A stretch of 62,088 bases of DNA, the filler included, from Pirum gemmata (lineage: Eukaryota), in assembly GCA_002812295.1 (NCBI GenBank). It is 13 parts of 13 records of this genome, joined end to end, with 100 filler letters (N's around TTAATTAATTAA, not from the genome) between each part and the next. Parts side by side here need not be neighbours in the genome. Positions count along the whole stretch, not along the records: positions 1 to 4,543 come from PDIN01001061.1; 12 more parts are not named here. One strand, written 5' to 3'. Both the position numbers and the translations under genes were made by a program. How positions within the stretch are numbered: the first letter of the stretch is position 1; each line of letters begins with the position of its first letter. The notes under the pieces were generated by a model, which saw nothing but the letters and a program-made list of their open reading frames with translations, was not told where the DNA came from and ran no database searches. Shown piece by piece: positions 1 through 60,741 of this stretch.

Positions 1-1951
1 AAAATGTTACCCTTAATAATAAAATAAAAACCTTGAAAATGTACATCGTTGAGAGTTTACCTTACTTTGTTGAGACCGTGGTTTCTTATATCACTATGGG
101 TATATATGAGTTAAAAGTTACTGATGAGCATGGTAATGAATTTAAGACCTTGACTAGGCGTGAGGTGAAAAACATTGTACAGGAAGGTACAAGGGTGGGG
201 CGTAACTTGTTGCTACCGTATGTTAGTAACAAGGTGGTAACAAATAAACACACTAAGGAGTTGAATAAAAGTCTTTTATTACAAGAAGAGCAAGAACTTG
301 CTTGCATGTTGTCTTTTACAGTTAGAAGTACTCCTGATAGAGAGTTGTTTTTGGAGCAAATTCCTGGTTGGGAGCCCTCGGTAGTACCTGAAGATGTTTT
401 TGGGAACAAAGTGGTGGGAGAGCCGGCCATCTTATTAATAAAACAATTGAGAAGGGTAGCATGGGACCCCAGGTCCGGCAAATTCATCAAAGGGTACCAA
501 CATAAAATAAAAATAAAGGAAGGAACTACTCCTATATTTCAATACTATAAAGAGAAACATGGTGAGAAGAGTAAGTATAGGGATGTAGAGACGAAACAAA
601 TGCAGGATTACGATTTTGTTGAAGATGCCCCTTGGGATAGCAGGTGGAATAGTCAACCTGTGATGGTTGCTAAGCCTGGGGATCAAGGGTGGCGTATGTG
701 TGCGAACTTAGCACCTATAAACAAATACGTAGAAGCAGAAACGTTTCCGATTATGACAGAAGGGGAACTAATGGAAGAGATTGGTGACAAAAAGTGTTTT
801 ACAGTATTAGANATACTACTTTCACTGTTAGTGAAGGTAGGAAACAATATAAGAGGCTACCCATGGGTTTGAAGGATGCTTCTTTTGTTTTCCAGAGGAT
901 CATGAACTCTATCTTAGGGGATATAGTAAATCTGTATATATATATAGACGATTTAATTATAGCGACTAACACTGTGGAGGAAAACCGGGTTATACTAACT
1001 GAGGTGTTACGGAGGATGGATGACCATGACATACAGCTACGTATTGAAAAGTGTATGTTTTTTGAGTCTACAGTAACATACTTGGGGCGCAAGGTATCAA
1101 ATGAGGGGGTATCGGTAACTGATGAGGCGTTGTTGGGTATTAAACGATTGAAGCCACCGGAATCTAAGGATGATGTTAGGAGTGTGTATCAATCATTATC
1201 ATGGTGGTCCAGGTTTATTCCAAACTTTTCGATTATAACTGAGCCTATATCTAAGTTAACTAAGGCGCAGGTTAAGTTTGAGTGGGGGTTGGATCAACAA
1301 ACAGCTTGGGCCAGAGTTATGAGTGAGTTGGAGTTAAAAAGACGACTCACCACTCCAGATTATAATGGCCAGTTGGTATTGTATGTGGATGCTTGCTTAA
1401 CAGGTCTAGGTGCAGCTCTATTTAATAAGATAGAGGATGAATTGGTACCTGTAGCCTTTGCGAGTACCAAGTTACAGGAATGTCATTTCAATTACTCGCC
1501 AACTGAGTTAGAGGGTTTAGCTCTAATATTTGGTATAACCAAGTATGAGAAGATATTGTCAGCCTGTGTTAACCCTTTTACCATATACACGGACCATAAA
1601 CCTTTGCTGGGTATATGGAGGAAGTTAGATGGTTACAGTACTGATGATTCAGTCAAGTATAGGAGGTTAAGACGGTGGTGGTCACTTATGAATGCCTTTA
1701 ATTTCACTTTAGAATATGTGCCTGGTAAGTTTAACTACCATGCTGATTCTCAGTCTAGAATGGCGAGTGAGATCAGTCAATGGTTACAGTTTGTTGACAC
1801 ATACGATAGAAAGGCGGAAGACATACATCTAGGGACGATAGTCTACAACAACAATAGTATAAATGACGAAAATAATGTTGGTGATAATAAATTAAATGGC
1901 ACTAATGATAGTAAAAATATTTATGATGCTAATAAAAAAGATAGTTTTATA

Positions 1952-2346
1952 GATTTTAAATTGAATCCTATTTTATTCTCTTTTATTAATAACTTAATGG
2001 GTACATTGGATGTTGATTTATTTGCAGCAGAGCATAATTGTCAATTGCCTACTTTTATAACTAAAGAGAAAAATTCTTTTTTATTAGATTGGAATATGTT
2101 TAGAGGCTGGGCTAATCCACCTTTTTATTTATTACATAAAGTTTTATTAAAAATTTATCATTCTGGCGCTACGGTGATAGTCTGCCACCCTTACGACCCT
2201 TCTGCTAGTTGGTGGGGGCTTTGGACCACCTTGTTGTGTTGTGATCCGATTATTCTACCCAGAGCTACTAACACTTTTTTGCATAGGGGGGACAAAATTT
2301 TAGGACCACCCCGGTGGTCGGTCATTTTGGTCTCCAAATTGTCCGG
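1952..2346 (+). CDS. DIRS-type Dam-like N6-adenine DNA methyltransferase domain embedded in pol
   Basis: DFKLNPILF...GTLDVDLFAAEHNCQL (SAM-binding motif, DLFA 2015-2026), WANPPFYLLHKVLLKI (catalytic NPPF 2114-2125), VIVCHPYDPSASWW, ending KLSG. Same motif order as the MT domain of DIRS1 elements. Confidence 0.85.
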
Positions 2347-2699
2347 AAATCAAAGTTCTCATTTTATGCCATCTGAAAATTTTTTTTGGGCTTTAGACGC
2401 CCAGTTGCAACTAGGTGTATCCTTATCGGTGGGCCCGCTTCCTGTTGATGAAAAAGGGGACACATTGTTACCTTATTTTGGGAACAGGGCATCTTATCAA
2501 TTTTGGCCCAAAATGCAGGCGGCTGCTGGGCAGGTTGTGACGTCACATATCAGTCCCGTTTTGGGGGATTTTGGTTTGGCTCTCATTGGAGCAGAGCGGG
2601 GGGCTTCCGGGTCTGCGGAAGTTCAGTCTGCTGAGAAAAATTTTGAGACAGTTTTTCACATTTTACCTGATGGTACCAAATTAAATAAATCAGATCTTA

Positions 2700-3660
2700 T
2701 TATGCACATACATTTATTTACTGGTCATGGAAAATTAAAAAAAATTCGTTTTCAGTTGGGTCTTATGGACTATGTGTCTAGTTTTTCTGACAGTTTCATT
2801 GATAGTGTTGTGTCTCGTTGTAAATCTTGTGATTTATTTAATAAAACTAAGAAGGTTAAATTACCTTTGGCTTCCTATCCTTTGTGTACCAAGCCATTAG
2901 AGCGTGTATCTATGGATTTATGTAAACTTAATGCAACGGTTGGTGGGTATAATTATATTTTAGTCATCATTGATCATTATTCCAGGTTTGTAGCGGCTGA
3001 ACCTTTAGAAAATAAAAATTCTACTACTGTATTTCCTTATATTATTCAATTTATTCACAATTATGGTCAGCCTGTTGAGTTTAATAATGATGGGGGTCAG
3101 GAATTCTTGGCTGATGATACTATTCAACAATTACGTAGTCTAGGTATTATGGTTCATCATCATACTCCTAGACGTCATCAGGCTAATGGTATGGTTGAAC
3201 GTGTAATTGGCACTATTCAACACATTTTACGACGTTTTATGCATGATGATAATAAACAACAGTGCTGGGTTCGTTATTTGCGGAAGGCTGTAGAGGCTTA
3301 TAATGGGTCTTTTCATTCTAGTATTAAAAACATTCCTGATTTATTGTTTTTGGGGCGTTTACGTAATAATCCTTTTGTGGTCAGTTCTTCACCATATCAA
3401 CAACGACAATCAGTAGGGGCACAACATCTGGCTGCGTCTCATCGCAAGCATAATTATGATAAAACTGTTTCTTGTCCTTTTCGGTTTCAGGTTGGGGATA
3501 AGGTTTGGCGTTTGTTAGATAACAATAGGGATGATTTGGCTAGTGTTTGGGAGGATAATGTTTTGACTATTGAGGTGGTGAATGATACCCATGCTCTTTG
3601 TTCTGATGGTGTACATGTAAAGCCTATTAAGGTTCATCTAGACCAGCTGCGACCTGCTAC
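2700..3660 (+). CDS. DDE integrase domain (HHCC + core + SH3/GPY-F-like tail)
   Basis: HIHLFTGH/CKSC zinc finger, PLERVSMDL, YILVIIDHYSRF, NDGGQEF, HQANGMVERV, FQVGDKVW. Confidence 0.9.
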
Positions 3661-4120
3661 AGATGCTTATGTGTTTGATACTCCTTTGTCTTATGGTCAA
3701 ACCCCTACTGTTTTGCATCATTCTAGTTTAGCTGTTCCTATGTTAGGTGTAAATTTTTATTCAAAATGGTTGATGGACATGCCCTGGTATGATTCTGGTT
3801 CACCCTATGTTCTACGTTTAATAGAAATTTTGAGTAAAGGTAAGAAGTTTAAAACTGAGATGTCAACTCATTTTATGTTTTGGTTCAAGTTTCGGCAGTC
3901 TTCTTCTTTTGATTGTTGTTTGGAGGATGGTATGGCTAGTCCTTGGTCTGCGGCTTTGCGCTCTGCTGTTCGCTCGCAGATGTGTTTCGCTAGTGCTCAG
4001 ACTAGAGAATCTGGGGTCCGCCGTGCTTTGAAGTTTGGTTTATGTGCGGATTTTCGTGATAAAACTTTGGATCGTTTGTCTGCTTGAAGTTATATTTTTT
4101 ATCTGCTTGAAGTTATATTT

Positions 4121-4125
<5 letters not shown>

Positions 4126-4162
<37 letters not shown>

Positions 4163-4168
4163 AAATGG
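4126..4168 (+). promoter_or_regulatory. Candidate polypurine tract
   Basis: A35-GAAAATGG lies 39 nt after the pol stop and directly before TG. Confidence 0.5.
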
Positions 4169-4513
4169 TGTTTTGTCCTCGCTTAATAAAGATTTTTCAG
4201 CATAAAAAGGACCTATCACCTGTGTTTTGAGCTACATTTTGTATTTTTTTTTGCTCATTTTCTCTTTCTGGATTTTATTTTCTTGGTTTTCTGGGTTTGT
4301 GTTTTATGGACTCTGTTTGTCTGTGTTTTTTTTTTCTTTGATGCTTTTTAGTCGGATTTTGGGTCTGATTACCTTTTTTTTTGTTTAGGCTTAATTAGCT
4401 TTGCGTTTCTTTTTCTTTTTTTCCTGACTCTTGGGTCTGGTTCTGTTTTGATTTGTTTAGTTAGTTTGGGTCATCTTTCTGTGTTTCAGGCAGATGACCT
4501 TGGGCGTGTCACA
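4169..4513 (+). repeat. Candidate 3' LTR (TGT...ACA, ~345 bp)
   Basis: Starts TGTTTTG immediately after the purine tract and ends GTGTCACA. The 5' LTR is outside the window, so this is unconfirmed. Confidence 0.5.
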
Positions 4514-4643
4514 GCTCGAGTGTTCGAGGTGAGTTTCGAACTCNNNNNNNNNNNNNNNNNNNNNNNNNNNNNNNNNNNNNNNNNNNNTTAATTAATTAAN
4601 NNNNNNNNNNNNNNNNNNNNNNNNNNNNNNNNNNNNNNNNNNN

Positions 4644-14518: not shown

Positions 14519-14840
14519 GATAACTGTGACTTCAACCTTAGCACAAACAGTAGAGTGACTTACTTCAACAGGCAACAGGTCAACTCTCAAGTCTCGACCC
14601 AAATTTAGTTTATCAGATAGATGACACCTCATTTTTTTTTTTTTTTTTTTCGATTCCAAATTCTACCCTTTTTTAATTAAAAAAATAGTAAAATACTTTG
14701 TAAACACTATCGAGCTAGAAATACCAAAATACCTCCCCCCAGCCCCCCCCAATTAGTGCTTTCTAAAACTTTTCTAAAGTGCTTTTTTTACTTTTTTTAT
14801 ATTTCACTTGAAATTTCTTGAAATTTTCTATTTCTGGAAN

Positions 14841-17800
14841 AAATTTTAAACGTGAAATATCATTAATAACAATTAAGTCAGGGTTAATATAAAACTTCTT
14901 ATCTATCTTCCTACTATTAACCCTCTTATATAAATCACATTTACTCTTGGCATTTATATCTGTCGTAAAATCTCTAAACTCTTTTCTATTAATTCTTTTT
15001 CTTACTTCACAATTCCACTTATTCATATTAATATCACAAGAGACTAGGCTGTTAAAATACTGAGTAAGTTTACACTCTTCAATACATTTATCAGTAAACG
15101 ATTTCCATGTTCTTCTGTTAAAACCATATCTGGGATCTAAATCAATTACTTTACCAATAATATTAACATTTTTGTGAACAATAACATTGCCAAACCATTT
15201 GAGCCTTAATTTTATCAATTGATATTCCAACTTTTCTATACCCAACTCATTTCGGACATAAGAACTTGAAGTTGTATCACTACAACCCAATATCCATTTC
15301 AACACACATAATTGTAAACTCTCTAGCTTTTTAAGTTGTACCGCATCACACCACCAAATTTCACAACTATAGGTAATTATAGGCTTAATAATATTATTCC
15401 AGATAATTAACTTTGTCATACTATCAATTCGACTATTTCTAAAAATTAAAAACTTCCAATTATTAATTTTAGTTGACACCTTATCTACTATATGATCAAT
15501 ATGACTATTCCATTTCCAGTAGTGATTAACCCATAATCCCAAATACTTATATTTGTCAACAAAAGGCAAATTATTTTCCGGAAAATTATCAATATACTGC
15601 TGAATTAAATTATTTCTAACCCCATCTTTTTGAACAACTATCATAATCCCACTCTTTTTGAAATTAATTTCAAGTCTCCATTTTTTACAAAATAGAACTA
15701 AACAATTAATGAGTTTATCCAAATCACTATCATTAACAGCCACTAAAGCGATATCATCCGCATACAACAAACAACGAATAACAGAACATAATTCATTCTC
15801 AGATAAGTCTAAATTTAAACTATTAATATCAACAATTAAACTATTAATAAAAATTTTAAATAAAGTAGGAGATAAAACATCACCCTGTCTCACACCAATT
15901 ATAATATCAAACATATCACAGTCTTCACCATCAACTAAAACTGTACTGCGACTATTTTTATACATCTGCCTAATAACACGCCACAATCTGCCTTTAATAC
16001 CGTATTCAAATAGTTTAACCCATAAACCTTCTCTCCACACTCTATCAAACGCTTTTTTCACATCAATAAAAGCTAAGTAAGTAGGAATACCATTAGCTAA
16101 ATTGTTCTCAATAATCTTATTTAAAACAAACAGGTGGTCCACACAGCCTTTNNNNNNNNNNNNNNNNNNNNNNNNNNNNNNNNNNNNNNNNNNNNNNNNN
16201 NNNNNNNNNNNNNNNNNNNNNNNNNNNNNNNNNNNNNNNNNNNNNNNNNNNNNNNNNNNNNNNNNCCACTACTAAATCCCCCTTGTTCATTATTAATAAT
16301 TTTGTTAGTATCCAGGAATTTGGTTAACCGCTTGTCAATTAAACAACTCAATAATTTGTACATAACACTAAGTAAAGTTATACCCCTAAAATTATTACAA
16401 TCAAACTTATCACCATCTTTAAAAATGTTAACTATTCTACCAATTTTTAATTCATCACTAAGATGTTCATTAACCCATAAGCAATTGATAACTTTTGTGA
16501 ACATTATTTCTCCATTTTCAGTATTACACAATTTAAGCAAATCATTTGTCAATTCATCAGCACCACCCGCTTTATGACTTTTTAAATTAAAAATACATTT
16601 ACTTACTTCCTCAACAGTAAAAACAGCATCTAAGATAGGATCAGGATCAACAACTCCACTAAGTATCTCATACCTGCTCAGAGTATTTTCAATATCATTC
16701 TTAAACTCAGAACAAAAACAATCATCATTAATTTCATTACCCAATTTAGCATAATGATCTCTCCAAGTTTTTTTCTTCGTCTCTTTATCATTAACAATTT
16801 CACCACTAGAAATTCTCACACCCAAATTAGCATCATTATTATGACCATTAGTTAACAATTTAATTAAAGTATAAAACTTCTTCGGCTCAAGTCCACTATT
16901 AATTTTACTACAAAATTCTTGATACGAGGTTTGATTGTCTTCAAAACATTGTTGTTTAATCTTGGTATTTAATTTGTTTACTGTTTGCCAGTCCGACTCA
17001 TTGTTTCTGACCAAGGCCCTTTTTTTAAATTTATTCCTTCTACTAGTCAAACTCTTAACTTTAGAAGAATTTTTACGATAGAACCCAGAACATTTAATCT
17101 CAGTTTTTCCAACTACATCATTACAAATCTCTTTAAACTCTGCCAACCAATCATTAAAACAAACATTATTTTCATCACGGTACATATCATCATTAACCAC
17201 TTCAGGCACCGAATTATCAAAATTATGAAACTGTTTCATCCACTCAGAGTATACATCCTTAATGACAAATTTACAACTATTCATTTGACAAAAACGTAAG
17301 TCTAAATCCTTTTGTACTTTATCAATAATTTCAAAACTATCAACCTTAGTATTCCATTTTCGAATAATTTTACAAGGAACCCTTTTGTATTTAAAAGGGA
17401 GTTTAATGGTAGCATAAACTAACTTGTGATTACTTTCAATAACATCATCAATCTCATCTCCAACTAATGAGTTCATAATTAAATAAGGTTTAAACCTATT
17501 TCCGATGATGTAATCAATTATACTACTACCAGTCTGGGAACAGAAGGTATACAAGATTTTCTCTTGGAACCTGTTATTTTTTGTTATACCGTTGTAAATT
17601 TTTAAATTGTTTTGAATTAACCAACTAATAAGTTTATGACCATTTGAATTAATAGTAGATTCACCAAACTCACTAATAACATCACCGGTGTAAGAGTCAC
17701 CAATTCCAACTCTAGCATTAAAATCACCCAAGATCCAAACCTCACCCAACAACTCCAAAGTTTGTTTCATTTTACTAATCTCAGAAAGTATACTATCTCG

Positions 17801-19222
17801 GACCATAGTACTACTATTTGCAACATCCATGTACACAGAGCATAGATATACATTTTTACAGCCATTACCATTAGTAATCTTAATCCACATTATGCGATCA
17901 TTAAATTTATCACTTAAGTTTGGAACAATATTGATTAGGTTAAAAATGCTTTTTCTAATCAAAAAGCCAACACCACCCCGACCACGTTTGGCTCCAGGCA
18001 CAAGATCAGCACAATTACCAATCCATTTATACCTGTTTATCTTAACTTTCTCATCACCTTTTAACCAATGTTCTGAAATGGCAACTATATCTAATTTCTT
18101 TCTAAAGAGTATGTCATCTAAGAAGGTCCACTTGCTATTAATACCACTAACATTCCACGTACCAATATTTAACCTGCTTCTTTCGTATTCAATCCATTTT
18201 CCATCCGAAACAGAATTAGTATAAGTAAAATTAGAATTAGAGAATAAATGTGTTACATCATTCCATTCCAATAACCATTCCAAGTACACATTAGGACCTA
18301 ATATCTTATCATTTAATTTCATACCGCATGAACGCAATAAATAAAATTTGTTATTACTGAGAGGATCCACCACCAGATCCATCTCTTTCTGAAGTTTTTC
18401 TCTATGATATTGTCTGGTCTTAAAAGACTGACCTAGGTCTGCTTTCCACCCAAGTAGTTTTTGCCTTCGTTTTATAATTTTAAAAATATGATCCCTGTCT
18501 TTACTCTTAAATACTATAATATATACATATCTATTATCATCATACCCCTTCCACTGGACTTTTTCGATTAAATTCATATCAATATGCATATTTTCCAACC
18601 ATATACAAAGTTGACATTCTACTATATATCTACCTACACCCCAAAGTACTATAGCACGACTCTCTCTCTCATCCTTCTTAGACTTAAAAACAGGAATCCA
18701 ATCACCTTTGTCATCACCTTCGGAGTCGTCATCACTAATAATATACTCATCACCATTATCTTTACCATTTTTAATCTCATCATTTATCATTAAATCCTCA
18801 TTTATCAACAACAAATTATTAATTAAGTTTCTCCATAAATCCACATCAATCAATCTACAAAACGGACTAATATCATTAGCCATACATGGACAATTATATG
18901 TGGCACTCCTTCTAATCTCACCAACATTATTTATCTCTTCTAACACCTTCTTCCAATTAACCGTACTATTCGTATCAGATCTAGACATCACTTTACAACA
19001 TCTATTGTATACTTCTCTCACCACCTTTTCTCTCTTCATCATATCAACTTCTTTCTTAACATCACAGGACATACAAATCAAAAAGGATACTCTTTTAATT
19101 GATTTTAACAAATTATTATTATTACTACCGATACCAGAGTACCCTACGTGCACCAAAATTGATGACAGATTATTAAATAATCGTCACACTTTCTTTCTTT
19201 TTTCTTTAGAACAACTATTCAT
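14841..19222 (-). mobile_element. Non-LTR retrotransposon (LINE), APE endonuclease + RT, 3' end lost at N 14840
   Basis: APE motifs: TWNVSG, AISEHWL, ILGDFNA, SIIDYII, SNH. RT motifs: KAGGAD, NFRGITLL, EQGGF, AFIDVKKAFDRVWR, GVRQGDVLSPTLF, LLYADD, YKYLG. The two ORFs are split only by the N-gap 16152-16265. Confidence 0.95.
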
Positions 19223-45701: not shown

Positions 45702-47258
45702 TTACTTACATTCACCACAGAATTGTCGATTCATTTGTAAAAAAGCGTCTGCACTTTCTCGCAGAGTTCGTATCAACACAAATCTAAAGTAGTTGTCGCC
45801 AACATTTGCTTGATAATATGAATCTTCTACAATTTCTTTAACCATTTGCTCTCCGTCGATTACTTTATCAAAAAGAGCTTCCAACGCAATTTTCACAGCT
45901 ACTTTATATTGGGGTGTCGCGTCCGTGAAAATAACTAATGGGGTATTTTTGTTTACCTTTTTAGATTCTTTTTCCATTTTACATTTAGCAAACGCCAACA
46001 CTTTCTCTATAGACGTATCGCATTGATTGGTGGCATCACCACGTCTTAGATGAAGAGCTACGAAAGGAAATTTGGCTTGGCTTAATTTCCCGTTTTTCAT
46101 GCTTAAATCTATATTACTAACACTCTTATCAGCTTGGATTTCTTCCTTAAATAACTCACTCAAGAACTTTTTTTTTAAATCTTGATAAAAACGAGGGTTA
46201 TAATCATGCCGATACGAATACCCTTTCTTGTGATAATAGTAATTCGCGAAATTAGCACATTGGGTCTTATGCTTTTTCTCGTAAGACATGACATGGCCTT
46301 CAATATATGCACGATAGGTATAATAACGAACTTTAAAACCCACCTCTTGTCCGATACTCCACACGAAATTTTTCCCCAGTCTCATCAACTTCATAGCCTT
46401 GATTAAATCTTCTTTCGTTTTACCTTTATCTTCTGTGACCAAAACATAAGGACGGATTTTTTCAACTTCATCAAAACTATTCAAACCACGCGCAGAAAGT
46501 GTAGTTACAATATTATGTCCATCGTTGTATTTTCCAAAGTCAAAATAGGTATCCCAGTCATTATCTTTTGGAACCGGTTTTCCGTTGTTATGGCTTACCG
46601 CTAAAAATTTTGAAGGCGGTAATATAACTAATTGAGCACATAACGATAACGCTAAAAGTGCTGAATGTGAAATCACACTTAACCTATCGTTATAACCAGC
46701 AGTAACTCTTTCTTTTAGTACTAATATATTTTTAATTTCTTTGCAATCTAACAAATCTTTTTTCTCTTGTCCACAAAATTCTTTCAGCTCATGTTCTACG
46801 TCTACTTTCCCAAGTAATGCAAGAGTTTTCTCCTTGTTACCTTGGGGATTAATAATTTCGGCATTGTTATTATTAACTATGTTAACACTATCCGTATTTT
46901 TGGTGTCAGCGTCAACCTGATTTTGTACCTCCACAAAATCTTTTTTAATGTTAATTTTATTTTTAGAAGATAAAAGCTGAAAAGAAGTTCTTATTTTTTC
47001 CAACAAGTGAGTTTGATCACTATCATTACTATGTGTATGGCTAAGCTCTTTAATACTATTTGTTATATTATTATTATTCTCTGCTGTATTATCCTTTGTA
47101 ACTTTATCATTGTCACTTGTATCAAAATGTACATTAAATGTTGTATTTACTTCACCCGAGTCATAAACTTTGGAAGGTAATACTATGAGTAAAAATAACA
47201 AAATAAAAAATATAGTGTATACTTTTTTATTTATAATTATGTTATAAAAGCTACCCAT
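45702..47258 (-). CDS. Type II membrane glycosyltransferase, GDP-fucose-dependent fucosyltransferase-like (GT11/GT23/GT65/NodZ motif class)
   Basis: 518 aa intact. N-terminal TM (IFFILLFLLIVL), N/D-rich stem, AGYNDRL motif, FVALHLRRGD and VIFTD motifs. Confidence 0.75.
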   Translation of the reverse strand: MGSFYNIIINKKVYTIFFILLFLLIVLPSKVYDSGEVNTTFNVHFDTSDNDKVTKDNTAENNNNITNSIKELSHTHSNDSDQTHLLEKIRTSFQLLSSKNKINIKKDFVEVQNQVDADTKNTDSVNIVNNNNAEIINPQGNKEKTLALLGKVDVEHELKEFCGQEKKDLLDCKEIKNILVLKERVTAGYNDRLSVISHSALLALSLCAQLVILPPSKFLAVSHNNGKPVPKDNDWDTYFDFGKYNDGHNIVTTLSARGLNSFDEVEKIRPYVLVTEDKGKTKEDLIKAMKLMRLGKNFVWSIGQEVGFKVRYYTYRAYIEGHVMSYEKKHKTQCANFANYYYHKKGYSYRHDYNPRFYQDLKKKFLSELFKEEIQADKSVSNIDLSMKNGKLSQAKFPFVALHLRRGDATNQCDTSIEKVLAFAKCKMEKESKKVNKNTPLVIFTDATPQYKVAVKIALEALFDKVIDGEQMVKEIVEDSYYQANVGDNYFRFVLIRTLRESADAFLQMNRQFCGECK

Positions 47259-50200
47259 TATTTATATTTTCAATTTCGATTAAATTCTGTAGAAATTGTT
47301 TTTTTGTTACTATTAGCATGACATTGTTTTTGAATTTAGGATTGTTATAATAGGGCTGTTATAATACTACTTTATAAAAATAAGGAAAAGAGTAACTCCA
47401 GATAGTAATATACTGGAATAATTTATAAATACCAATGTTAATTAATAACACTAATTATAATATTAATTAACACTAATAACCTAATAACAATATCTAACCA
47501 CACCAATATAATATTAATAAAATGTTAGTATTAAATATTCGTTAATTTCAAAAAATTAATGCTGTTGTTGTTTGTTGTTGTTGTTGTTGTTGTCTGTTGT
47601 TGTTTGTTGTTTGTTGTTTGTTGTTTGTTGTTTGTTGTTTGTTGTTTGTTGTTTGTTGTTTGTTGTTTGTTGTTTGTTGTTTGTTGTTTGTTGTTTGTTG
47701 TTTGTTNNNNNNNNNNNNNNNNNNNNNNNNNNNNNNNNNNNNNNNNNNNNNNNNNNNNNNNNNNNNNNNNNNNNNNNNNNNNNNNNNNNNNNNNNNNTTT
47801 GTTGTTTGTTGTTTGTTGTTTGTTGTTTGTTGTTTGTTGTTTGTTGTTTGTTGTTTGTTGTTTGCTGTTTGTTGTTTGTTGTTTGTTGTTGTTTGTTGTT
47901 TGTTATTGTTGTTTGTTGTTTGTTGTTTGTTGTTGTTGTTATAGTTCTTGTCAGTGTTATTATTGTTATTATTGCTGTTATTGTTGTTATTGTTGTTGCT
48001 ATTACTATTACTATCACTATTATTATTGCTATTGTTATTGTTATTGTTATTGTTATTGTTATTGTTATTGTTATTGTTATTGTTATTGTTATTGTTATTG
48101 TTATCTCATAATTACAATAGGGATTTTGTCACTATATCCAATTGTTTATTCGACTTTCTTATGTATAATGTATTTCAAGTTAATATATAATAATACTAGC
48201 CCTACAACCAACCTCACACAAACACCTAAATCGTTTATTATTATTTTTATTTATTTTTTTTATTATTATTATTATTTTTGTTTTATCATAATTATTTCTT
48301 ATAAAATGTAATTTATATATACATGATTTCTTCTCTTTCTAATTATTTTTNNNNNNNNNNNNNNNNNNNNNNNNNNNNNNNNNNNNNNNNNNNNTTAATT
48401 AATTAANNNNNNNNNNNNNNNNNNNNNNNNNNNNNNNNNNNNNNNNNNNNGGATTTCTAATAAGTTATTCTTATCAAGTTGTGATATGTATGATACATAC
48501 CAGTAGAAACTATCTGTGAAGGGTATGATAGTATCGTACCGTGTTAGGCTTGTTATTATAGTATTTAGGGGATCTATTTAGGGTGAGGGTTATCAGGATT
48601 ATGGTTATAGTTTGGGTTAGGGTAAGGGTTAGGGTAAGGGTAAGGGTAAGGGTAAGGGTAAGGGTAAGGGTAAGGGTTAGGGTTAGGGTTAGGGTTAGGG
48701 TTAGGGTTAGGGTCAGAGTCTGTTAGANNNNNNNNNNNNNNNNNNNNNNNNNNNNNNNNNNNGTTGTTCAAAAAAATTTTTTTTTTTTTCTTGAACGCCT
48801 TGAGAAAAAGAAAAAAAAAAAACCGAAATAATCCACCATAAATAATCCGAAGCTTTTCGGATTCGTCCGAAACTATGATATTATCCAAAACGACTTCGAA
48901 TCAGTCGAATCAATCCTTCGGTTTTCATCCTACGAATGACTGTCACAGTTTACATGAAGTTATTAAAAATGCAAACTGTTATCAACTCTGTTCAGTCTGT
49001 CGTGCTTTTCAGTTGTTTTGTCATCACAAAAATACAAAAAAGAGTACCAAATTAATACAATATAAATCCATTTCATTTAATTTGGTATATTTTATTATAG
49101 ATTTATTCATTTGAAAATATCAATTTAAAAGTATTATAACCGACCAAATAAATATTCGGAGTAACAAAATAAATGAAAAGCACAAAGTATAGTATAATAG
49201 TATCGATAAGCACTTTCAGTTGTTTTATGATATCATTATAAAATATTATATGAAATAAAGAACACCAAATATAAATCTATTAATTTTTTTTTTTAATTTC
49301 ATTATCTGTTTGTTCATTTTTAAAAACGTCAACTTTTAAAAAGGTTATCATATAAGTTACCAAATAATATTCTAATTGATAAAATAAATGAAATTACAAT
49401 AGCTAGACTACTAGTAGCTAGACTAGTAGTAGTTATGCATAGTCTAGCTGTATCTATATCATATTATGAACACGTAGTAGCTATCACATAGTATCAATAT
49501 CATATCATTATATCATATAGACTAGCCTGCTATCAATAGTCTATATATCTAACTCTGCTGCTAGTACCAACCGTGCCAACTAGAGTAGTCTTAGTCAGCT
49601 TAGTCTCTATTAGTCTATATTGACTAGAGTCTATTAGTTTAGAGGCTTTTTTTTAGGAAAAAAAAAGAAAAAAAGTAGACTAGTATTATAATATATTACA
49701 TATAATCCAATATAAATTAACATCATTGCTAACATAATTTTCAATTCGTCAAACACTCCGGTTACACTCGTACGATATTAAAGCAGATAAGCCTAAAAAA
49801 AGTGTTTAAACACACCCTTCCAATGAGCTAGATAGAGGGGTTAGCTATGCCAATAGTAACTGACTTGTGCAAATTGTGAGAAATTGTGACCCTTTATTGG
49901 GTACCATTTTTTGGACATTTCTAAATTAGAAATATTCTTCAGCAACAGAGTTGAACAGACCTGAACAGAGTTCAACAGAGTAGCTAGAGTATCGTGTTTT
50001 TCCTCTAGCTAGACTAGCTAGTCTAGGTTTTTTTCAACAATGTTGTTCAGTTCAAAAACTGAAATAAACGAGTAATAAACGTATGATACCGTGTACCAAA
50101 AGAAATCATTTTTTTTAGACTTCTTTTTTCTTTAGAAAAACTTTTTTTTAAAAAAAAATTTAGCTAGCTAAATTATTGTTTTTTAATTAAAAACTGGCCA

Positions 50201-57922: not shown

Positions 57923-60741
57923 CTAAAAATCATCAGTACTACAATAGTTTCCATTCATATCATCATTGGTCGCCGAATACTCATTAGTATTTTCAGACAA
58001 CATGTGTTCCGTGCCTACTTTGCCTTCTTCGCCGTATTCCATAGCGAAAAACGGTACATCTGGACACATTTCGTCTTCCATTTTACCACCAGCAGCCATA
58101 AAGTCGGCATCAGATTGCAACTCAATCCCAGGGGCATCTTCGCCCAATAACTCTTTGATATTTTTCTTTTCTTTCATCTTTTCTTTACGTTTTCTGCAGT
58201 ATACTGCTAAACCGATACCAATGGCTATTAATACTACCGCACCAACCACCAAACCAATAATAATGGGTGTCCAGTTTCTTGGAGTGGGAGAACAATAACC
58301 ATCTTTAACGTCATACCCATCTTTACATACAGAGCAAGCAACCATACGAGTATTATCACCAATACAAGCATCACTCACATTAAGACAATTAACAGGTGTA
58401 GAAAGAGTTAAATTAGATAAACAGGATATACAAGAAGTGAAGTTCATTTTCGTATCAGTAACCAAGGTATGGTTTTTAACTGCATCACATGCAACACAAA
58501 CAGCTTGGTCGTTGGCGTCAAAGTAAATGTTAGCTTCTTTCGCGTTAAAATCACAAGTTATACACTCGGAATCTATTTTGGCCATAATATTACGATGGTT
58601 TTCCTTTTTAATTAATTTCTTACTATTTCCATCAGTGATAGAACAATCAAAATCAAAGACAGCTTTAGTTTTTGTAAAATTACCATTAGCTGCATGCAAA
58701 GCTTCGCGATTTTTACAACAATGCATATCATTCCCATTCAATTTGACAATACTATTAGGATTAGTGTATAACTGAGAGAACAAATCCATAGACATTTCAG
58801 CAATGTTGTTGTTACTAAGGTCTAGTACATTAAGGGTAGTTAAGGGTTTCAAGATTTCTTTACTAACACTATTTAAGTTATTATTTGCAAGGCGTACTTC
58901 CTCAAGGTTAGCATTATTAACAAAAACATTTTTGGGCAAAGTTGCAATGTGGTTGTCGTCTAAATTTAAAGTTTTTAAAGCAGTAAATTTGGCAAATGAA
59001 AAAGGTTTGTCATTTAGAAGTGCGCCTTTTAAATTTAACGCTTCGATGGTTGGAGGAATAAAATTATTAGCAGGATCCACAGGACTAACTTGTAAAGGGT
59101 TCCCATGTACATCAAAAACTTTTACAGTTAATGGAATAGAACCTGCAGTAATTTCTTTAATTTTGTTGTTATTCAGAAGATAGGTTATAAGGTTAGTGGT
59201 ACTTTTAACAATTTTCGATACATCTTCAATTGCATTGTTTCCTAAATCTAAATATACAAGTTTCGTAAAAAGCTCCAAGTTGGCATTTGCCGAAAATAAG
59301 TTGTTGTTTGACAATTTTAAAGTTGTTAAGGTTCCTTTGAAATCCTCCAATTTTTTAACATCAGTCACACTGTTGTTACTTAGATCTAATAATTCAAGGA
59401 CGGTATGGTTAGGGTTAGCTGCAGGACCTACAATTTGATTGTTGCGAGCGATAAGTGATTTGATTTGGTTATTTGAGATAGTATTTTTTGGCAAAGATGT
59501 TAAGGCATTGTTTGATAAATCCCTATTTTTAAAAAAATAAAAAAGATAAACAAGTTAGAGATTTTATTAGAAATCTTACATATTAAACAAATAATAATAA
59601 CAAAAAATAATAATAATTAATAATAAATAATAATAAATAATAATAAATAATAAAAAATAAAAATAAATAGTAATAAATAATAATTAATAATAAATAATAA
59701 TAAATAATAATAAATAATAATAAATAATAATAAATAATAATAAAATAATAATAAATAATAATAAATAATAATAAATAATAATAAATAATAATAAATAACA
59801 ATATAATAATAATATAATAATAATAACACTAATAATAATAATAATAACTAATAATAAACAATAACAATAATAAAAATAAATATTTAACATTTTACATAAT
59901 ACTTACAATTCAATATCTTTCATACTTAGATCAGCAGTAAACAAATCATCTACAACAGTTAAAATACCAAAATTACTTAAATCAATAACATTTGGACAAG
60001 CAGTCAATTTCGAGGCGGTACCGTCAAAAGTTAATTTTTTTGCAGCATCTAGCTTAAAAGAAAATCGACTGCAATGAATTTTTTCGTCGAAATTATAAGT
60101 AAGCCCATCAAATTGTTCTTTAGAAAATTCTGTTCTAATAACTTTACTATTTAAAATAGTTACTGTGTCCAAATTTTGTTTGACTTTTGCATCTTGAAAA
60201 AAAGTTTTAGAAATAGTCGTAAAAGGGTTGTTTGATAAATCTAAATCTGTTAAATTACCAATTTTCCAAATTCCTTTAATGTTATTCAAATCCGCAATAT
60301 CGTTATTGGCTAAATTTCTAAACACATTTTAAATAATACAAGTTATAATGAAATGTCAATAAGAATGATTATCGCAATAATAATAATAATAAATAATAAT
60401 AGAGAGTAATAGATTAAAAGCATTAACAACAATAACAATAACAATGCCAATAATTAAAACAACAATAATGATAATAATAATAATAATAAATAGTAACAAC
60501 AGAGACTTAAATAATAATAATAATAATAATAATGATAATAATAATAAAAATAATAATAATAATAGCAGTAACAAAAACAATAGCAAAAATACCAAAAAAA
60601 AAAAAAACAATAACTACTACTCTATTACTACTAATACTACTACTACTACTACCACTACTATATAATATAAATACAACTACTACTTCTACTTATTACTACT
60701 ACTACTACTACCTACAATTTCAAATTAATGTATAATATAAA

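Follow-up and report, generated by a model that had tools for sequence, protein, structure and literature searches.

A Dam-type methyltransferase domain within the pol gene of a Ty3/Gypsy element of Pirum gemmata, from the ichthyosporean DAM-LTR lineage already described

Dam-like methyltransferases (MTases) of retrotransposons have been associated with the tyrosine-recombinase elements of the DIRS group; DIRS1 has the layout reverse transcriptase (RT), RNase H (RH), methyltransferase (PMC3266345), and the accessible part of another paper mentions such enzymes in DIRS elements only (PMC5890265). A recent preprint by Fernandez-Moreno et al. (bioRxiv 10.64898/2026.05.21.726589, 22 May 2026), cited throughout from the accessible part of its text, screened EukProt V3 for Dam domains and claims their first identification in long terminal repeat (LTR) elements other than DIRS. 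Among these DAM-LTRs it recognises an 'Ichthyosporean DAM-LTR lineage' (bootstrap 97%) from Pirum gemmata, from Abeoforma whisleri and from Sphaeroforma arctica, with a conventional Ty3/Gypsy organisation and without a chromodomain, and another clade in which DAM is flanked by integrase (INT) and RT. Here we describe a Dam-bearing Ty3/Gypsy pol gene from a 62,088-nucleotide stretch of the P. gemmata assembly GCA_002812295.1 (the window), and compare it with these systems.

According to the preprint, DAM-LTRs occur mostly in hosts that encode AMT1, and those of A. whisleri and S. arctica carry more N6-methyladenine (6mA) and are more highly expressed than other LTR elements. The position of Dam within the ichthyosporean elements is not spelled out in its text, and its supplements may list the family found in the window. 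Beyond this preprint, our literature search returned no description of Dam in LTR elements, and the accessible text of PMC12695648 does not mention Pirum. The element in the window is a member of the published ichthyosporean lineage, and so is already known rather than novel. It shares with that lineage a Ty3/Gypsy RT and DDE integrase, a Dam domain with the NPP triad inside pol, the lack of a chromodomain and P. gemmata as host; its Dam clade holds A. whisleri proteins, and its protein is present in EukProt, the set that the preprint screened. A first-pass annotation of the window had regarded the element as its best candidate for an undescribed system unless such Gypsy families were already catalogued; since the preprint describes DAM-LTRs, including an ichthyosporean lineage in P. 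gemmata itself, that claim is withdrawn.

The window consists of short contigs (approximately 4.5 kb) strung together via N-linkers, and the element occupies most of the contig at 1-4543. An open frame of 1090 amino acids (aa) at 815-4087 contains, in this order, the Pfam domains RVT_1, RT_RNaseH, Dam (PF05869; 32 bits against a curated cut-off of 28.1) and rve (Table 1), with the HHCC zinc finger of the integrase at 2705-2830 and its D..D-35-E residues at 2909-3205. Ty3 Gag-Pol is the best solved relative of the RT, RNase H and integrase (E 9.6e-38), and the element has the RT-RH-INT order of yeast Ty3 (Metaviridae); it differs from Ty3/Gypsy pol in some 300 additional residues, comprising a linker, Dam and a spacer, between RNase H and integrase. 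The first-pass annotation is thereby borne out in its identification of a Ty3-type RT/RNase H, of an in-frame Dam-type MTase with DLFA and an intact NPPF, and of an HHCC-DDE integrase following it. The single uninterrupted frame that it drew from 794 to 4087 is open from 815 onwards, but the N at 812 is an assembly gap within RT, where contigs from two of four sequencing runs (X1 and X2, from two studies) have 50 letters. A gap of this length would join the upstream frame 3-811 in phase, matching 18 residues there of P0002, a second P. gemmata copy, and hence pol starts before base 1; a frameshift at 812 was considered and rejected. The gag gene and 5' LTR lie off the contig, which begins inside pol. 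P0002 possesses a DTG aspartic-protease-like motif upstream, yet no Pfam protease match. At the other end, the open reading frame (ORF) continues for approximately 230 aa beyond the integrase core without a Pfam family, and contig 1-4543 has no other long ORF that could encode a recombinase.

The Dam-bearing Gypsy pol is a real, multi-copy element. Besides the window protein, which from its first Met is a EukProt entry and shares a 90% cluster with two P. gemmata proteins, EukProt contains P0002 (91% identity over 445 aa), with RT, RH and Dam in one frame, and P0003, one of those two (92% identity to the window protein); having consecutive accessions and a common name suffix, P0002 and P0003 are probably two pieces of one other copy. 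P0002 was also the sole find among 40 candidates in a word-based homolog search with the Dam region. In run X1, two contigs join the end of RNase H to the start of Dam over linkers of differing length, and contigs tile 2031-2770, two arms that differ by 11 and 19 letters crossing the Dam-integrase spacer. Hence the same junctions recur in other copies, as the first-pass annotation had suggested should be sought. RH-Dam is found too in P0006, which represents a second P. gemmata family and is 43% identical to the window in Dam, and among the best 150 matches from 1.84 billion representatives Dam is found in 27, Dam with integrase in 21, all four domains in 12 and the order of the window in 11. 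These observations bear on whether the order could be an artefact, through chimeric assembly or through the chance nesting of a DIRS fragment within a single Gypsy copy. Such an origin might be suspected from the short, fragmented contigs and the gap at 812, and from the fact that no single contig among those listed spans Dam core to integrase core, while X1 may be the source sample of the assembly; run X2, at 85% likeness, covers RT and integrase but not Dam, and is no evidence either way. Against it stand the 91% identical copy, the divergent arms in X1 (no joint being listed for its contigs within 1950-2850), the second family and the 11 matches of identical order, so that a chimeric assembly was rejected and we consider an artefact of either kind extremely improbable.

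Among the differences between copies that were listed, synonymous changes account for 13/21 in Dam, where 20% is expected, and for 11/12 in RT, 18/23 in integrase and 8/18 in the spacer. This count covers only the listed differences (40 of 93 and 40 of 374) and ignores transition bias; the excess is a rough sign of purifying selection and not a ratio of non-synonymous to synonymous substitution rates. A deeper-covered variant of the Dam region was also seen at 2017-2224, with small insertions, which departs from the element at 2224 to end loose in purine-rich sequence and is possibly an abundant truncated, non-autonomous derivative.

The Dam domain contains DLFA at 2015-2026 and the catalytic NPPF, that is, the N-P-P triad with its aromatic neighbour, at 2114-2125. 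The window retains NPP[F/W], as do 20 of the 26 relatives aligned with it, N-P-P is invariant in a nine-row alignment, and PF05869 is matched by all nine Dam rows. In the predicted model, built from a 27-row alignment (predicted local distance difference test, pLDDT, 92.9), the domain has the fold of an S-adenosylmethionine (SAM)-dependent N6-adenine MTase with its SAM-binding and catalytic motifs, in agreement with the profile match and with the assignment made at first pass. Among viral models in BFVD, phage DNA N6-adenine MTases are the best matches (E 5e-10; template modelling score 0.71-0.77), giant-virus PCIF1-like proteins ranking below them (E 6e-6 or weaker). The domain therefore resembles phage Dam (PF05869, PHROG 111) in both sequence profile and predicted fold, but is embedded in a retroelement polyprotein and is only 15-20% identical. 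Among solved structures the best match is PCIF1/CAPAM (Foldseek E 5.7e-4; Z 10.0, root-mean-square deviation 3.0 over 134 residues), followed by rRNA MTases, M.TaqI (Z 7.9), T4Dam (Z 7.8) and EcoDam (Z 7.4). Identity to PCIF1 is 14%, however, and the 138-residue domain is without the other domains of that protein, including any match to PCIF1_WW, which is matched weakly in one of nine Dam rows and in one DIRS-type protein. Searched against PDB sequences, the Dam profile found no MTase, only Chk1 kinase and a racemase, which we take as chance. In a model of RH-Dam-INT both flanking linkers have pLDDT below 50 and the predicted template modelling score is 0.33; hence no fixed arrangement of the domains is predicted.

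The ancestry of the backbone and of Dam was examined in separate trees, from which near-duplicate, short or long-branched rows were dropped; a 36-row combined matrix further omits eight rows by choice and five with duplicated or missing domains. DIRS-type rows were typed by architecture (the protein ends right after Dam) and not by their recombinases. In the RT tree, 22 such RT-RH-Dam-terminal proteins form a clade of their own (support 100), and the window lies outside it, among LTR elements. The Dam tree, built from 68 rows (none named Sphaeroforma) under a mixture model, pairs the window with P0006 (100/99) within a 22-row LTR-type clade (98/98) that includes three A. whisleri proteins and no DIRS-type row. 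With 42 rows under LG+G4, grouping with the Abeoforma clade reaches only 89/94, and placements of Dam with other LTR Dams or with DIRS-type Dams are not rejected (approximately unbiased, AU, test 0.23 and 0.14). The likeness to DIRS1-like elements (PMC3266345) lies in the MTase directly following RNase H and in 28% Dam identity to a DIRS-type protein, but pol in the window runs on into a DDE integrase, its RT is outside the DIRS-type clade and the contig offers no recombinase ORF, and a DIRS element was rejected as an identification. The Gypsy-DIRS chimera proposed at first pass, as an alternative to an independent capture, survives to the extent that the Dam domain is DIRS-related at most: with an LTR-side RT and nearest Dam relatives that are LTR-borne, there is no sign that Dam was captured directly and recently from a DIRS element. 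A DIRS-type query found nothing in viral contigs, and a query with P0155 in metagenome contigs returned four loci, of which L001, the one whose ORFs were read, is a gag-pol Gypsy with no Dam-like stretch seen in them.

The backbone of the window appears to stand apart from that of the A. whisleri DAM-LTRs. A. whisleri-type RTs form a 100/100 clade without the Pirum RT; forcing the Pirum backbone to group with A. whisleri DAM-LTRs is not rejected by RT alone (AU 0.27) or by integrase alone (AU 0.17), whereas a matrix of 36 rows and 537 columns that combines RT, RH and INT does reject it (AU 1.1e-7). The Pirum backbone may on this basis come from a different Gypsy lineage than that of Abeoforma. 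The window sits on a long branch (1.93), Dam-less rows had been chosen by their likeness to its own integrase and the incongruence is one-sided, so that a swap of Dam between Gypsy lineages is a lead and not a result. P0007, which belongs to the Abeoforma-type Dam clade, matches Chromo weakly (aa 1463-1504, E 0.055), and the description 'lacks chromodomains' may not be true of the whole of that clade.

The last 135 residues of the frame are 99% identical between two copies (the integrase core being 97% and the spacer 83% identical), and have no match in Pfam, PHROG or Atlas (in Atlas, chance-level hits or none). This orphan domain occupies the position of the chromodomain in chromoviruses; Pfam detects Chromo in other DAM-LTRs, but matches no family within 3392-4084 at E values up to 5. 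We raise, with more doubt than confidence, the possibility that the Pirum family is a second, unrecognised ichthyosporean DAM-LTR assembly, in which an unrelated Gypsy backbone would have acquired its Dam laterally from the Abeoforma-type clade, from LTR to LTR and without a DIRS donor, and in which a new, highly conserved C-terminal domain could direct integration by recognising chromatin or 6mA. Neither the orphan domain nor the separate backbone appears in the accessible text of the preprint, though its trees may show them. At the end of pol, a 23-base tandem duplication at 4075-4120 covers the stop codon and directly precedes a purine run. The contig has no second LTR to confirm the candidate LTR start at 4166, and hairpins at both candidate starts do not outperform shuffled sequences (z -0.22 and -1.42).

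Regarding function, we think it likely that Dam methylates adenines in the newly reverse-transcribed DNA of the element, placing 6mA on the cDNA or hybrid that would be kept after integration by AMT1 and so keep the new copy active. In Ty3, the polyprotein is processed and reverse transcription takes place within a particle. By analogy, the Pirum polyprotein would be packaged in a virus-like particle and cleaved by its protease, and Dam would there meet the nascent cDNA; held between two flexible linkers, it would use SAM to deposit 6mA on this cDNA or on the RNA:DNA hybrid. Integrase would then insert the marked copy, and host AMT1 would maintain 6mA at ApT, leaving the new copy in transcription-permissive chromatin. 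The maintenance model is that of the preprint (10.64898/2026.05.21.726589), where correlations in Abeoforma and Sphaeroforma are its basis. What we observe in Pirum is the domain order, the presence of several copies with intact motifs, a modelled MTase fold and a synonymous bias, the remaining steps being inferred or the preprint's own. ApT and GATC frequencies in the element are the same as in the remainder of the window. Several results tell against this proposal: dam-deficient E. coli showed no rise in 6mA with the eukaryotic DAMs of the preprint, Iyer et al. (PMC4738411, as far as its accessible text goes) assign DIRS MTases to the PCIF1 clade and regard them as probably inactive, and to these are added the rank of PCIF1 among solved structures, the limits of the synonymous count and the weaker Dam placements given above.

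These same results suggest other functions. Were the enzyme an RNA MTase like PCIF1, it could place N6-methyladenosine or N6,2'-O-dimethyladenosine on transcripts of the element, or on the hybrid's RNA strand, and thereby aid stability, packaging or evasion of RNA surveillance. The structural ranking of PCIF1/CAPAM, with rRNA MTases next, is in keeping with this, as are the grouping by Iyer et al., the scattered weak PCIF1_WW matches and the negative DNA assay in E. coli; yet phage DNA Dam models match far better than PCIF1-like ones, every one of the nine Dam rows matches PF05869, and the preprint ties DAM-LTRs to DNA 6mA and AMT1 hosts. Moreover, as the Dam profile found no MTase among solved structures by sequence, the PDB ranking may mirror what has been solved, and we judge an RNA substrate to be unlikely. 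We place no greater weight on a catalytically idle domain, retained for its binding of nucleic acid or SAM, perhaps as a reader of 6mA or a tether guiding integration or the location of the polyprotein: the E. coli result, the opinion of Iyer et al. on DIRS MTases and the absence of NPP[F/W] from six of 26 relatives would agree with it, but the window copy retains DLFA and NPPF, and an N-P-P triad invariant in nine rows is expected of a working active site. Less probable again is an enzyme acting in trans on chromosomal DNA, either the target site or host genes, to which it would be brought with integrase instead of marking its own cDNA. Dam lies on the N-terminal side of integrase within a single polyprotein and might remain attached after processing, and the conserved orphan domain sits at the usual place of targeting chromodomains; nevertheless, the 6mA enrichment in the preprint concerns the DAM-LTR insertions themselves. 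Methylation of the element's own new DNA is the function that we favour.

Table 1. Features of the Dam-bearing element on contig 1-4543 of the window, with the evidence for each
Feature	Position	Strand	Evidence
Upstream pol (post-protease region and N-terminal half of RT)	3..811	+	94% identity to P0002 aa 79-347; open at contig start
Single N, gap of about 50 bases inside RT	812..812	.	X1 and X2 contigs link 811 to 813 via 50 letters
Reverse transcriptase, C-terminal half; YIDD 941-952	815..1279	+	RVT_1 aa 7-92, E 4.5e-15; Ty3-G Gag-Pol E 9.6e-38
RNase H, Ty3/Gypsy type	1352..1774	+	RT_RNaseH aa 182-295, E 1e-18; aligned to Ty3 RT/RH
Asn-rich linker, copy-variable length, predicted disordered	1775..1942	+	74% identity to P0002 against 95-97% for flanking domains; pLDDT <50; X1 length variants
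Dam-type N6-adenine methyltransferase domain	1943..2356	+	PF05869 aa 387-468, E 1.2e-7; PHROG 111 E 5.1e-12; model pLDDT 92.9
Dam-integrase spacer	2357..2680	+	No Pfam/PHROG match; 83% identity to P0003; pLDDT <50 over most
Integrase, HHCC zinc finger and D,D-35-E core	2681..3394	+	rve aa 693-787, E 5.4e-13; D-E spacing 35; aligns with Ty3 and foamy-virus integrases
Post-core integrase region, possibly SH3-like C-terminal domain (weak lead)	3395..3679	+	Atlas 0.78-0.79 to integrase C-terminal clusters, the chance range; no Pfam match
Orphan C-terminal domain, ~135 aa; stop 4085-4087	3680..4087	+	No Pfam/PHROG/Atlas match; 99% identity to P0003 over 131 aa
Candidate polypurine tract (40-base pure-purine run), then TG at 4166 as inferred 3' LTR start	4126..4165	+	Sequence; 20 bases ahead of 4166 all purine (fraction 1.0)
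High-copy repeat start (TG) at contig end; alternative LTR start or another element	4507..4543	+	Jump in summed contig depth and loose ends with other upstream letters at 4506

Dam was also encountered in other settings. Two proteins from metagenome contigs, P0030 and P0170, are pols of the Ty1/Copia type in which Dam separates the integrase SH3 region from RVT_2; the word 'copia' is absent from the accessible text of the preprint, a literature search combining copia with adenine methyltransferase found no such description, and these elements may represent an unlisted further capture. Other Gypsy pols have Dam at different places: P0048 carries it downstream of integrase, P0185 ahead of RT, and P0145 between an EEP endonuclease and RT. 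A fungal (Olpidium) protein, P0181, has a dUTPase followed by a Dam-like domain. Elsewhere in the window there is a long interspersed nuclear element (LINE)-type element at 14766-19183 on the minus strand, with a Pfam EEP endonuclease and the start of an RT whose RT-like frame continues across an N gap. Host-like genes are found on the minus strand at 45705-47261, a weak O-fucosyltransferase-like ORF, and at 57926-59554, a leucine-rich-repeat ORF. Many TTAGGG-type repeat arrays are present, some of them at contig ends (4644-4850, 9958-10065, 32730-32990 and others).

The window copy is not a new system, but a compact example of a DAM-LTR with intact motifs, well suited to a biochemical test. 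DAM-LTRs as a group suggest that, where a host's active chromatin is marked by 6mA, a retrotransposon can itself place an activating mark on the DNA of its own copies.

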